Assembly (NCBI RefSeq): GCF_046119375.1 | Contig: NW_027362771.1 | Location: 586,272,001-586,336,000 of the forward strand | Direction: 5' to 3' | Source: Phyllobates terribilis | Taxonomy: Eukaryota | DNA: 64,000 bases | Notes under the pieces: generated by a model | Database searches by the model: none | Told to the model about the DNA's origin: nothing | The model's input: the letters and a program-made list of their open reading frames with translations, nothing else | Made by a program: the position numbers and the translations under genes | In this document: positions 1,724 to 25,700 of the stretch, piece by piece | Layout of the letters: each line of letters opens with the position of its first letter | Numbering within the stretch: position 1 is the stretch's first letter

Positions 1724-4700
1724 ATGGCGCCCTCGGATGTGATGGGAGCCGCGGAGGAGCTGGCAGAGCAGGTAACAGCGCCCCGCAATGACCCCCGTTC
1801 CGTCACCTCCGGGAAACTGCTGTATAATTACCCTGCAGTCACAAGATCCTCCTTATAAGTGGCATGGTACAGTCCATGTCTTCCTACCCTGCAGCATCTG
1901 TTGGTATGTTCCGCTTGGCATATGTGATGCTTGGAATGTACCATGTGATGGGGAGAGTAATTCATTAATTGGACAAGTCATTAACGCTTAATCATCCTGC
2001 TGGTCAATGACCCCTGTGAGGGAAATGACCGCCAGTTACAGGCAGTGATGCTGATGCATCGCTCTGCAGCAGTAATAAGCAACCTGTGGCTTCCTGAGGG
2101 AAAGTTACGGGACACTATGGGACTTGTAATCCTACATGGGCCATACACAAGGACAATACCAGTCACTCCGCCATTGTGACACATGTAGCATCCATTCACC
2201 ATATTGTGGTGGCCAAGTCTGCCATGTAGGAGCTGAACCGCCATCATCTGCCATTCTTAAAGGGGTCCTCTCAGCTTCGACACCCCTTTAATTGTAATTC
2301 TCGCTGCCAATCAGTGGATCACTTGTGTTCGCCATCAAGGTGCTCGGAGGGTTAAAAGGGGTTTCCAAGTTTTGGGAAAAAAAAACTGTCCATCAGAGTC
2401 CCCATCTGCAAAGCTGCAGCCAATCGGTGAGTGCAGCTGCCCTGAGCAATTTGTGCTGGGTCTACCCGGGCAGAGCTGCTGGGCTGCAGCACTGTCACAT
2501 GATAACGTCAGCACTGCAGACAGTGACAGACAGCAGTGGCAGAGACTCAGTGATGGACCTGGGGAGGGGGAGTAAAGAGCAGGGTTAAAAAAAGAACACA
2601 GGGAGAGGAGTTTTCCGAAACTGGAAAACCCCCTTAAAGAGGCCATTAGACCGTGTTCACACTAGTAAATGCGTTGGGTTGAGTTTTTTTCTGCAGCCGT
2701 CCGTAATATAATAGTCATCTACTTGAATTACGGCTTCTTTTTCTCCGCTTTTTTCTGTATTTTTGGTGACGATTTGAAGCTGCCTTTTTTATTTTTATTT
2801 CAGAAACGCTGGAATTCCTCCACACGTGAAAGCATCTATGGATTTTCTTGCGTCCTTTTTCAGTCCCCTAAAGGAAAAAAAAAAAAACGCTGTCCGGGTT
2901 GCAATAATATAATCTGATGTTATTTACCCTCCTGGATTCCAGTGCCCTCACTACATATTGCACATCACTGCAGCTAATCGCTCAGCTTAGCGGCTCATGC
3001 TGTTTACATGAGCAGAGCGGCTGCAGCGGTGATGTGCGCTGTAGTCATGGTATCACCACTGCAGCCTGTCAGCAAAGGAGGAGGGAGAATAACAGGTGAT
3101 TTATAATATTCAAAACCAGACTGATACAGTCAGAAAATGGATAACACCTCTATACACAGTAGATAACACAGGATCCACCATTCACAATAGGTGATATCAC
3201 AGCTCACCTCCTCCCCCTCCTGTATAATGACTGATGACACCTCTATATACAGTAGATAACAGGATCCACCATTGACAATGGGTGATATCACAGCTCACCT
3301 CCTCCTCCTGTACAGTGACCTTTGCACACGCTCATTAGCCACTTCATTGCACATGATAGGCTTCTGATCCGACTATTGCTGCTAATGTGCGTGTATTATG
3401 TACTGAAAGAACAGGAAGTAAGGGTATAAAAAAGCCCCAGAGACTGATGTGAAAATTACAAGATTTCTGAGTTGTTTTTTTAATAAAAATTGTGATATGG
3501 AAAATACATAGATAAAAGCTTTTAAATATAAGTTCAACACAAAAAAAATCAGGATTTAAAATAACAGATCATTTTCTGATAACACGTTCCCTTTCAGGAG
3601 TTAAAAATACATAAAAAAAACTGTGGATGGGTGAGGTCAGTGATGACGGACGCAATTAGTTTCTCCTGATATATGGATCATGTAGCTGCTGACGAGGGGT
3701 GAAATGTGCACCATCCCTTTTATCATATCAGCAAATGGCGCCCACTGTAAATGGGTTCTGTGGAAATGTACCTTTAATGGTATAGAGGGAAGACCCTAGT
3801 CTGGACCCCAATTTATCAGCCAGAGGAGGACCTGGCTCGTCCATAAAGACAAACTGTAATGTGTAAGTTCTCCTACGTGGGTGCTGTAGAAAAATTAAAC
3901 CTCTGGTTCTTCTGTAGCTCCCTCATTTGTTACTTGCCGACCTTCTGTGGTTCTGAAGCGATCACATGTAACGAGACGTGGCAGCCACGGAAGTGTCAAG
4001 GGATGGGGAATATACTGATTTTTATGGACGTTCCTGCGATTCCACTTGTGTGAACATTCCCGAAGGGTAAATGCACACAATGCAGATTTGATGCCGGTTT
4101 TCTTTACAGTAAATCTCACGTATCACATTTGTATTTTGTCACAGATTTCACCTTTTGCTTTGCAGGTATTATACTCCAGAGCTGCACTCACTATTCTCCT
4201 GGTGCAGTCACTGTGTACATACATTACATTACTGATCCTGAGTTACCTCCTGTATTATACTCCAGAGCTGTACTCACTATTCTGATGATGCAGTCACTGT
4301 GTACATACATTACATTACTGATCCTGAGTTACATCCTGTATTATACTCCAGAGCTGCACTCACTATTCTGCTGATGCAGTCACTGTGTACATACATTACA
4401 TTACTGATCCTGAGTTACCTCCTGTCTTATACTCCAGAGCTGCACTCACTATTCTGCTGGTGCAGTCACTGTGTACATACATTACATTACTGATCCTGAG
4501 TTACCTCCTGTATTACACTCCAGAGCTGCACTCACTATTCTGCTGGTGCAGTCACTGTGTACATACATTACATTACTGATCCTGAGTTACATCCTGTATT
4601 ATACTCCAGAGCTGCACTCACTATTCTGCTGGTGCAGTCACTGTGTACATACATTACATTACTGATCCTGAGTTACATCCTGTATTATACTGCAGAGCTG

Positions 4701-22700: not shown

Positions 22701-25700
22701 CTTACTAGCATCTTCATACTCACGGAGGTGGATCATGACCCGGGAGGCATAGGTGGACTCAGAATCGCCCAACCTTCCTCAGTGAGGTCGGCCTCACCTC
22801 CGCGAGCACTCGGCTTTCCTCCGGAAGGAGCGCCATCATGCACGCAGTCAGGCTTACCCTCCATGCTGGAAGCCTTGCGGCTTCTAGGAGTCTCCACAGT
22901 CCCGGGGGGAGTAGGAACCACATTGCTGCGACTCTTGGTGGAACATCTCACCCCCGAGTCCTCCGATGTACAGGCCGGTTGCTGGTTTCTCCTGCCCCCC
23001 GCCGGCCTGGTTCGGGAAGCAGAAGCCTGGGACTTGGCTCCATCGCTCATCCCAGGAAACCCGCTCCCTCCCTGGGTAAGAGAGAGAGCAGGTGCCCAGG
23101 TGGAGAGGTGTTGGTTTCTCAGAGAGATCAGGAGCTCACAGCAGGATCTGCAGCCACCACACCTGTAATCAGCACACTGACCAGCAGCTGATCCAGAGCT
23201 GCACACACTATTCTGCTGGTGCAGTCACTGTGTACATACATTACATTACTGATCCAGAGTTATATCCTGTATTATACTCCAGAGCTGCACTCACTATTCT
23301 GCTGGTGGAGTCACTGTGTACATACATTACTGATCCTGAGTTATATCCTGTATTATACTCCAGAGCTGCACTCACTATTCTGCTGGTGCAGTCACTGTGT
23401 ACATACATTACATTACTGATCCTGAGTTATATCCTGTATTATACTCCAGAGCTGCACTCACTATTCTGCTGGTGGAGTCACTGTGTACATACATTACATT
23501 GCTGATCCTGTACTGATCCTGAGTTACATCCTGTATTATACCCCAGAGCTGCACTCACTATTCTGCTGGTGCAGTCACTGTGTACATACATTACATTACT
23601 GATCCTGCACTGATCCTTAGTTACATCCTGTATTATACTCCAGAGCTGCACTCACTATTCAGCTGGTGCAGTCACTGTGTACATACATTACATTGCTGAT
23701 CCTGAGTTACATCCTGTATTATACCCCAGAGCTGCACTCACTGTTCTGCTGGTGCAGTCCCTGTGTACATACATTACAGGTTGGTCCTGGCTTCCCTCTC
23801 CTGTTTATTTGCCTGGTGCCGCTGTGTTTCCGGCAGATGAGGGCGCTCTGGCTCTGGTTCTGGTTCTGGCTCCGGCTCTGTGTAAGTTGATGCCCAGTAG
23901 ATTATGATTAATCTTGATATTTGCACATGGTGGCAGCGTACTCGGGAGCGTCCTGTGTAATGTCAGTCACACGTGTAGATGTAAATGTTCTCCTCTCTGC
24001 CTGAATGACTGATAACAGGGAACAATAGACTGTGTCATGTACAGTGCTCATGGCTGTGGCCTCTCTGCTGCCCTCTTGTGGTCATACTTTGGAACTACAG
24101 GGCGATATGCTCAGAACCCCCGGGATTAGTTGCTGTTCCTTTAGGCAATGTGTGATGACTGGTTGGGCTTGCTGTGCTGCCGTTGAGCTGACACTCTACC
24201 TGTCTTCCTACAGTTTCTGCGGCTCACAAAGCGCTATTTACCGCACGTGGCTCATCTGTGTCTGATCAGCACCTTCATGGAGGACGGCCTGCGGATGTGG
24301 CTGCAGTGGGACGAGCAGCGGGATTACATCACCATGTCCTGGGGCTGCGGGATGTTCCTGGCTACTGTGTTTGTTCTTATTAATATGCTGGGACAACTGG
24401 GTGAGACCCCGAGACGGCTCCCTGTGCCCCCCACAAGCCCTCCTCTGGGGTGATAACGCTGTGTGTCTGTGTTTAGCTGGCTGCGTCCTTGTGCTGATGA
24501 GGAAGCTGGTCCCGTACGCCTGCCTTGGCCTCTTCGTCATCATCGTTCTGCAGGTGAGCGGGTACGGGGCCGAGCTTTGGGGCCCATGTTGTAGCAGCAC
24601 GGACTGCAGTGTGTTAATGTGATGCATCCATGCTGGGGTGGACCCCCCAGCCCCCATTCTGTGGCATATCACGCTCCTATTACCCTATGGTAACGTGGCA
24701 TGATTGCCGCTGGGCATCTTGCGGGTCAGCGTGCCAGTGACTGTTCACGACGATGCGATGGCTCAGTCCCTCCCACTGCAGTAGAAGAACTGTGCTAAGA
24801 CATAAATAGTCTGTGACCGGGACCACAGTGCCACCCAGTGGTGAAGACGAGGGACTGCAGTCCCATACACCGGACTGCAAAGTACTCTACAGCATGAGCC
24901 ATGGAGACCCCTCAGACATGTTGCACCCCCACTCCTACATTACATCTGTAATAGTGACATCTGATGCTTCCTGTCATCCCCAAATATTTATCTGAATGGT
25001 GACTGTACACTGATCATCTGGTGACAATGGCGCCTCTTAGGGGTGGGATATATGAGGCAGCAAGTAATCAGTCAGTCCTTGAAGATTGTGGGTTGGCCCC
25101 AGCACCAATGCTGACCCCTGTCCACCAGGGAAAGTGCTTACAATGGGCACGCGATCATCAGTACTGGCCTATGTAAGATGGTGCCTGCTCTGATGAAAGA
25201 AGAATTATACCCTGTGGGCGACCGAGTGATCGATCATCTGTAGAATGTGCTGGAAAATAAAGTCCTTTAAGGAGGACTTGTCACTTGCTGTATATATGGT
25301 TTTTCCTAGCTGGTGTAAATGCCGCTGTTCCCCTGAATCCGGTGATGTTTTTCTTTTCTTCCTGCGCCTCTCCGTTCCTGAGATATGACCTTCTCTTTCT
25401 TGTATGTAAATCTAGTCTTGTGAGCTAAGTGGGCGTGGTGTGAACACTTTTCTGGGTGTGACTACGCCTACTTGGTAACAAGACTAGATTTACATACAAA
25501 GAAAGAGAAGGCCATATCTCCGGAACGGAGAGGCGCAGGAAGAAAAGAAAAACGGCGCTGGATTCAGGAGAACAGCGGCATTTACACCAAGGGGGAAATC
25601 AATATTTATAGCAAGTGACAGATCGTCCTTAAAGCATCTGCTGCTAATGTCTTGGCCCATGTCTTGAGGGGTCAGAGAAGGGCACCCTCACTGTGTTAGA

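Follow-up and report, generated by a model that had tools for sequence, protein, structure and literature searches.

The 64,000-nucleotide stretch of Phyllobates terribilis DNA analysed here, referred to as the window (assembly GCF_046119375.1, contig NW_027362771.1, positions 586,272,001 to 586,336,000), contains two copies of a retrotransposon without long terminal repeats (a non-LTR retrotransposon), located on the minus strand at the same base of an 86-bp satellite. Copies elsewhere in the 10.57-Gb assembly, to which all genome-wide counts refer, were found at this base as well, and the family is almost certainly target-specific. Based on the sequence patterns described below, it is likely that the element is inserted at one satellite base and strand through target-primed reverse transcription (TPRT), and that the annealing of a satellite-derived leader finishes the 5' junction.

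DNA searches for the two element ends returned 1,239 and 1,538 candidates. Among the exact termini in the whole genome, 554 of the 586 3' ends run into the satellite letters TACAGGA and 731 of the 765 5' ends are preceded by AGCTCTG(G)A, giving a targeting fidelity of approximately 95% at both ends. As 222,393 exact empty 24-mer sites are present in 10.57 Gb, this base and strand would be reached by chance in only about 1e-5 of insertions. For the 30 best-scoring loci of each end, the 5' flank was in-register satellite in 30/30 and the 3' flank started with TACAGGA in 29/30, the remaining one reading TACA before leaving the satellite. When the first 30 loci by position were taken, the 3' flanks were satellite in all 30 (25 exact and five one-letter variants), as were all 30 5' flanks. 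A family was treated as target-specific by Kojima (2015; PMC4494074) when one sequence type made up more than 20% of its flanks, a share that is exceeded here.

The initial annotation had proposed a family that targets a dispersed satellite, and the use of the same base and strand on many contigs supports this. With both termini searched genome-wide and their flanks tabulated, the other copies do not sit in random non-satellite flanks. Nor does this locus hold the only satellite-embedded copies: they occur on many contigs, and their flanks beyond the arrays are unrelated.

Some local features of the target were also observed. Three of 62 3' junctions (L040, L110 and L111) precede the inner TACAGGATCAG motif of a 97-bp satellite variant, which could reflect either a secondary site that is weakly used or 11 bp lost afterwards. 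On contig C1 (1.24 Gb), the first listed exact satellite site is at 531 Mb and the listed elements cluster at 539-624 and 1,162-1,237 Mb; the satellite seems to be regionally confined on this contig. Head-to-tail element-satellite-element tandems, with another copy within 1.5 kb upstream, were found at 8 of 81 5' loci (L004, L046, L067, L072, L078, L115, L136 and the window).

The window pair and the identity of the element

The satellite has a period of 86 bp, with 81- and 97-bp variants, in all three arrays of the window, which are arranged around the elements as follows (ORF, open reading frame; APE, apurinic/apyrimidinic endonuclease; RT, reverse transcriptase; RBD, RNA-binding domain).

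4166-7003, minus strand: satellite array of 32 units of 86 bp, including variants of 81 and 97 bp, lying downstream of element 1, where it forms the target side of the 3' junction
7004-14489, minus strand: element 1, 7,486 bp, full-length but broken, older subfamily
7889-10647, minus strand: element 1 ORF2 remnants (APE, RT, zf-RVT), spread across several frames
11632-13072, minus strand: element 1 ORF1 remnants, with two ZCCHC3-like RBDs and a CCHC knuckle
14490-14520, minus strand: satellite-derived leader of element 1, the final ~30 nt of the upstream unit
14490-15554, minus strand: satellite spacer between the elements, 12 units
15555-23191, minus strand: element 2, 7,637 bp, full-length but broken chimera with a young-subfamily body
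16231-19666, minus strand: element 2 ORF2 remnants (APE 19154-19666; RT within an 837-aa open stretch, 16640-19153)
20170-21927, minus strand: element 2 ORF1 core (ZCCHC3-like RBD1, RBD2 and zf-CCHC)
22100-23191, minus strand: element 2 5' tract, a copy of that of element 1 (with a breakpoint placed roughly at 22,080-22,140)
23150-23230, minus strand: imperfect inverted repeat spanning the element 2 5' junction, the element start being complementary to the upstream satellite
23192-23778, minus strand: seven-unit satellite array on the upstream side of element 2, with a leader variant at 23205

The coordinates and junctions agree exactly with the earlier description of two elements in one orientation at the same satellite base. 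On the left, satellite ...GTTACATCCTGTA directly abuts the element at 7004 and 15555, and on the right the element abuts satellite TCCAGAGCTGC at 14490 and 23192. The 6 bp TTATAC of the canonical unit are absent at both insertion sites, so that in element orientation the site reads ...GCAGCTCTGGA [GTATAA replaced by element] TACAGGATG.... These 6 bp are not newly cut out at each insertion; their loss is likely a fixed feature of an element-borne leader. The element terminates in AATAAAA(A)GATC without poly(A) (AATAAAAAGATC in element 1, also without a poly(A) tail, and AATAAAAGATC in element 2), and the 3' junction is flush, with neither a poly(A) tail nor a target duplication. GATC, present at both ends, was considered as a possible target duplication and ruled out, as the empty site has no GATC there.

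The two elements differ in 269 of 7,452 aligned columns (3.6%) and by 29 gaps, in line with the scattered substitutions of a few per cent and the private indels first noted by eye. Both are full length, as had been claimed, but neither is intact, the ORFs being broken; remnants of the ZCCHC3-like RNA-binding, zf-CCHC, APE and RT domains are found on the minus strand in both, and zf-RVT in element 1. Divergence from the column majority is approximately 0.6-1% in young copies and 2-4% in older ones, with about 2.6% (ORF2) in element 1 and 0.5-0.8% in the body of element 2; in the ORF2 DNA tree, row L253 was disregarded as it contains an insertion. Over its first ~1.1 kb, element 2 is only 1.0-1.2% different from element 1; this part has a 16-bp and a 3-bp deletion in common with element 1, and about four satellite units preceding it match the corresponding units of element 1. 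The remainder of element 2 is of a younger subfamily than element 1. The window elements are therefore not independent at their 5' ends, and the 5' 1.1 kb of element 2 is copied from element 1. Three kinds of event would each explain this: gene conversion at the locus, a duplication with later replacement, or a young complementary DNA (cDNA) completed on the neighbouring copy.

The family is an APE- and RT-encoding non-LTR retrotransposon of the L1 group, with an N-terminal APE, an RT and a C-terminal zinc motif in ORF2 and a separate ORF1. Natural copies with both ORFs open exist, in which the APE motifs and YADD are retained. In copy L084, ORF1 (1,127 aa) is open and encodes two ZCCHC3-like RNA-binding domains (PF23057 and PF23058), and the likewise open ORF2 (1,132 aa) encodes the Pfam domains Exo_endo_phos (APE), RVT_1 and zf-RVT; zf-CCHC (PF00098) scores above the cut-off in element 2. 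The best solved-structure match of ORF2 is human L1 ORF2p (E 3e-71), R2 being far weaker (E about 1e-24), and the APE, the two ORFs and the satellite target place the family outside the R2 clade. Among named proteins, ORF2 is closest to those of Bufo gargarizans (75%), Xenopus tropicalis (60%), Leptobrachium (54%) and Pelobates (52%), further ones falling to about 30%, and the ORF1 core has relatives at 71-86% in five hyloid frog genera. Bufo, Engystomops, Anomaloglossus, Eleutherodactylus and Ranitomeya harbour relatives that are 70-86% identical. In an RT tree built without a Tx1 reference, these ORF2s group in one clade of 11 of the 21 rows (support 96/94), in which the named proteins come from frogs. 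An ORF1 with a CCHC knuckle and ZCCHC3-like RNA-binding domains, unlike the mammalian L1 type, is presumably typical of Tx1. The putative Tx1-clade label follows from the L1-group ORF2, the ORF1 type and the behaviour of the family rather than from comparison with a named Tx1 sequence.

A metagenome scan with the ORF2 alignment gave 80 loci, with best segments 24-34% identical and no close relative with flanks, and a search of the ESM Atlas gave generic RT/APE clusters only. No family name could be taken from cluster members. None of the sequencing runs containing the element is recorded as RNA. Contigs from four runs cover element and satellite in two organisms. A second organism has both the element, in long contigs approximately 90-96% alike, and the satellite. 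In addition, positions 1-470 of L067 are the 3' end of a related element, 86% identical and at the same satellite base, indicating an older family with the same target.

The inherited leader, full-length copies and the junction hairpin

The upstream unit could be parsed at 68 of 81 5' junctions (51 young and 17 of the older subfamily), and 355 distant units were used as background. In the 51 young leaders, variants at unit positions 78, 67, 64 and 60 were present in 51, 48, 49 and 46 copies, respectively, and the farther variants at positions 50, 38 and 35 in 21, 6 and 6, compared with 0-6% in the distant units. The 17 older-subfamily leaders carry a variant set of their own; the leader of element 1 has A67T (at 14503), which is found in 5/17 older-subfamily leaders and 0/355 distant units. 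The second and third upstream units and both downstream units showed no variant enrichment, and in the 3' flank common satellite variants were at the background rate from base 5-9 onward. As a positive control, segmentally duplicated copies do have a common 3'-flank variant (5/6). The flank is thus inherited on the 5' side only, with a decay by distance. Leader type also tracks the tree of the element's first kilobase, and the variant leader 25-mer occurs 599 times genome-wide compared with 222,393 canonical sites. All 5' junctions read are seamless and in register, as described for R2, and partial reversions to the target letter were found in L068, L077 and L083. One-sided, decaying inheritance of this kind is what one would expect of an RNA that begins in the satellite and a cDNA end that anneals to the upstream unit. 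A doubled 5' junction was seen in L024, where the leader and about 30 nt of element are followed by the leader again, which looks like a template jump.

In most families of long interspersed nuclear elements (LINEs), truncated copies predominate. Of 39 copies that were selected by the 3' end, 28 extend to the 5' end and into satellite there, one does so after a short insert, five run off the fetched stretch and four end in other sequence. Separately, contigs C1 and C2 were covered completely, each of their 60 exact 3' ends being taken irrespective of the 5' end: 44 have the 5' pattern within 20 kb (two doubtful, at 16-18 kb) and 11 more were read as full length, so that a 5' end was located for 55/60, and none was truncated into satellite. 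Apparent 5' truncations mostly end in non-satellite sequence that resembles other transposon ends by eye, and they were not counted. As a test against hitch-hiking, Kojima (2015; PMC4494074) looked for independent 5'-truncated copies that are also in the target. Here the independence of copies is shown by flanks and codons, and truncated copies are almost absent (1/39 and 0/60).

The first ~40 nt of the element repeat the upstream leader in inverted form. The inverted repeat is real, and it probably arose by snap-back. Paired with the element start, the natural leader of young copies gives a fold that is 7 kcal/mol better than that of an ordinary unit end (46/47), with a fold z-score of -3.14 for the young copy L084; in the older subfamily it folds better in 8/17, which is no difference. 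When 45 of 84 junctions were aligned for covariation, several pairs of the hairpin were seen to change to or from G-U. These patterns suggest selection on the hairpin. An Rfam scan of 21800-24000 found no family near the gathering threshold, and the hairpin has no known ribozyme fold. At positions 977-1019 of L084, immediately before the ORF1 start codon, another hairpin is predicted, with about 22 pairs of which many are G-U.

A model of insertion and its alternatives

In the mechanism that we consider likely, transcription would start in the upstream satellite, so that the RNA carries a minimum of ~21 nt of satellite, frequently 30-45 nt, ahead of the element's first base. The APE would then nick the window-plus strand at ...TCCTGTA/TTATAC..., or up to 4 nt further into the TACA side, and read-through RNA could pair with the primer; the flush 3' junction itself is observed. 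A full-length cDNA would end in the complement of the leader, anneal to the upstream unit and overwrite its last 20-45 nt, and this overwriting would produce the fixed 6-bp loss and the inherited variants. Less firmly, cDNAs that stop early would lack the leader and might rarely be completed, leaving nearly all copies full length. More speculatively, the hairpin of leader and element start could protect or define the RNA's 5' end. It is also possible, although rather doubtful, that an APE-type LINE has converged on the lifestyle of R2, with no promoter of its own and transcription from the array. Its leader and hairpin would then be needed to set or protect the RNA 5' end and to anneal the cDNA, yielding precise 7.6-kb insertions in full length, and the leader would co-evolve with the element instead of the satellite, possibly across hyloid frogs.

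Several observations weigh against the leader-annealing model. The leader might be regular element sequence with no more than a likeness to the target, joined after a second upstream nick; only 4/51 young leaders have the target letter at position 60. In R2, annealing alters the precision of the junction, insertion efficiency is not mainly determined by it, and truncated insertions still occur (PMC11331408), which is why the link from annealing to full length can only be inferred. L082, one of the 39 copies, has a 5' truncation that joins satellite out of register; five of the 60 3' ends on C1 and C2 end in non-satellite sequence without a located 5' end, and the 44 were paired by coordinates only. 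For the hairpin, the fold z-score was not significant in two older copies (+0.44 for the element 2 junction and -0.43), a compensatory change was found in only 1/30 pairs (G-C to C-G, a single event), the consensus fold retains the inner stem only, and the inherited position-50 variant breaks a pair. In addition, five ORF2 frameshifts are common to more than one copy, and 22 of the 100 first-listed 3' ends fall in one amplified block (contig C3, 78-87 Mb). Genome-wide totals overcount independent events through such segmental duplicates.

One alternative is an ordinary sequence-specific TPRT with target-site truncation. The element would have its own 5' end and promoter, this end happening to start with a piece of satellite captured long ago, a second nick 20-45 nt upstream would remove the target piece, the join would be free of annealing and full length would reflect a processive RT. 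Target-site truncations have been described for elements mobilised by Tx1 (PMC4494074), annealing is not required for R2 insertion (PMC11331408), and the four nearest leader variants are almost fixed (46-51/51), as a fixed element end would give. However, inheritance decays with distance, from 100% to 41% and 12%, the seamless in-register joins in all junctions read need a variable crossover within homologous sequence, and L068, L077 and L083 show partial reversions to the target letter. We regard this explanation as unlikely.

A spread of one or a few insertions among arrays at the DNA level and without an RNA step, through ectopic gene conversion, unequal crossover or homing triggered by an endonuclease, would directly account for the missing 5' truncation. 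Local cases do exist, such as the 5' end of element 2 and the duplicate pair L101/L102, and a multi-megabase block contains near-identical copies with common flanks. In the block on C3, flanks of six sampled copies are 98-100% identical in 13/15 pairings, and two control copies outside it have no long near-identical stretch in common; the block holds dozens of same-orientation copies with ORF breaks in common. Further copies with the same ORF breaks are on the unplaced contigs C81, C208, C339, C456, C517 and C561. However, true DNA duplicates have their 3' flank in common, whereas in the family as a whole this flank is at background variation from base 5-9.

Codon patterns also speak against such a spread, as they require intact masters. 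In 41 copies (39 fetched and the two window elements), private changes are near neutral, with nonsynonymous/synonymous counts of 426/213 in ORF1 and 443/195 in ORF2 (neutral expectation 2.37 and 2.36), and changes common to at least four copies are under purifying selection (29/56 and 8/20). Frameshifts are mostly private (48/50 in ORF1 and 26/31 in ORF2). These patterns show that the family spread by retrotransposition from intact masters, and a spread by DNA-level processes is very improbable. Six copies (L066, L068, L074, L077, L089 and L094) are mosaics, their young body bearing a patch of higher divergence near 400-800 nt, and recombination among subfamilies is common; they were sampled by likeness to the young 3' end, and no old-5'/young-3' polarity is claimed.

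Finally, hitch-hiking of element and satellite as cargo of a DNA transposon, either a miniature inverted-repeat transposable element (MITE) or a Helitron, as in the Tx1C composite, can hardly be the explanation, even though frog tandem repeats are known on MITEs (Xstir; PMC12628747, PMC9659126) and Tx1L resides in the DNA transposon Tx1D. The arrays end at many registers and vary from <50 bp to >1.5 kb per side, and the 400 bp beyond them have no common terminus or shared terminal repeats, the few matches being further element copies or scattered repeats; no MITE or Helitron carrier was seen.

Outside the satellite region, the window contains, on the plus strand, an open 358-codon Tc1/mariner transposase frame (47085-48161; HTH_Tnp_Tc3_2 and DDE_3), a frame with a Saf4/Yju2 match that is probably an exon of a splicing-factor gene (34422-34931) and a stop-free 345-codon frame with no Pfam match (62416-63453). 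Other tandem repeats are located at 3140-3309 (91 bp), 26403-26707 (27 bp), 32190-32379 (34 bp), 42092-42782 (33 bp), 55768-56480 (44 bp) and 57938-58611 (31/21 bp).

Comparison with known systems

The satellite had been thought to be an undescribed kind of target, which does not hold, as the targets of the Tx1 clade given by Kojima (2015; PMC4494074) include transposons, small nuclear RNA genes and microsatellites, and the legend of Fig. 3 adds 'Sat, satellites'. Like Tx1L of Xenopus laevis, Keno, Kibi, Koshi and Tx1-Mar, the family is an APE and RT element at a fixed site in a multicopy sequence (PMC4494074, PMC1950540), and the Tx1L endonuclease alone nicks its target sequence-specifically in vitro (Repanas 2007; PMC1950540). 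Its target differs from those of the sequence-specific Tx1 families (PMC4494074) in being a dispersed 86-bp satellite, used with approximately 95% fidelity. An inherited leader and near-zero 5' truncation were not found described for sequence-specific Tx1 elements in the parts of PMC4494074 and PMC1950540 consulted. No description of the 86-bp satellite, for which four motifs were sought, or of the LINE family was found in the literature searched, and a prior Repbase entry is possible. Tx1L makes a target duplication, unlike the present family.

In R2 of the 28S ribosomal DNA, as described by Palm et al. (2024; PMC11331408), target sequence retained upstream in the RNA also leads to a seamless 5' junction, precise junctions being made through cDNA annealing, and a stable 5' structure raises insertion efficiency. 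R2 has a restriction-like endonuclease, one ORF and a ribozyme like that of hepatitis delta virus, whereas the present family combines an APE with two ORFs and a target that is not a gene, and its 5' end has no match in Rfam. In crocodilians, SINEU-2B, which is mobilised by Tx1-Mar, has a target-derived 5' extension for which transcription started in the flank was proposed. It is a non-autonomous short interspersed nuclear element, often 5'-truncated and with a weak target preference (PMC4494074), whereas the element here is autonomous and its leader is in-register and homologous to the target. YURE of Ciona likewise consists of non-LTR elements within a satellite (Kojima and Jurka 2015; PMC4640811), but belongs to a clade with a restriction-like endonuclease, inserts there only occasionally, and its satellite derives from an ancestral U2 target (PMC4640811).

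The satellite itself resembles Xstir of Xenopus, which has a unit length of 86 bp. Both are dispersed tandem repeats of frogs (PMC12628747, PMC9659126), a likeness by description rather than by comparison of sequences; Xstir rides on a MITE (PMC12628747, PMC9659126), and no carrier was found for the satellite here.

How non-LTR elements complete their 5' junctions, and why most of them truncate, is still open outside R2. Hundreds of natural insertions of an L1-group element record a one-sided gradient of target letters, making the annealing model testable by counting. An APE/RT element that places 7.6 kb in full length at one base with approximately 95% fidelity is relevant to targeted gene insertion as well, a field whose sole worked-out system is R2. 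Targeting of satellites is an expected habit of Tx1, which limits the surprise, and it is already known in this clade. The variant features of the present family are its strict fidelity, the missing truncations, the junction hairpin and the R2-like leader in an APE-type element, a habit that was found in the literature searched only for the distantly related R2.

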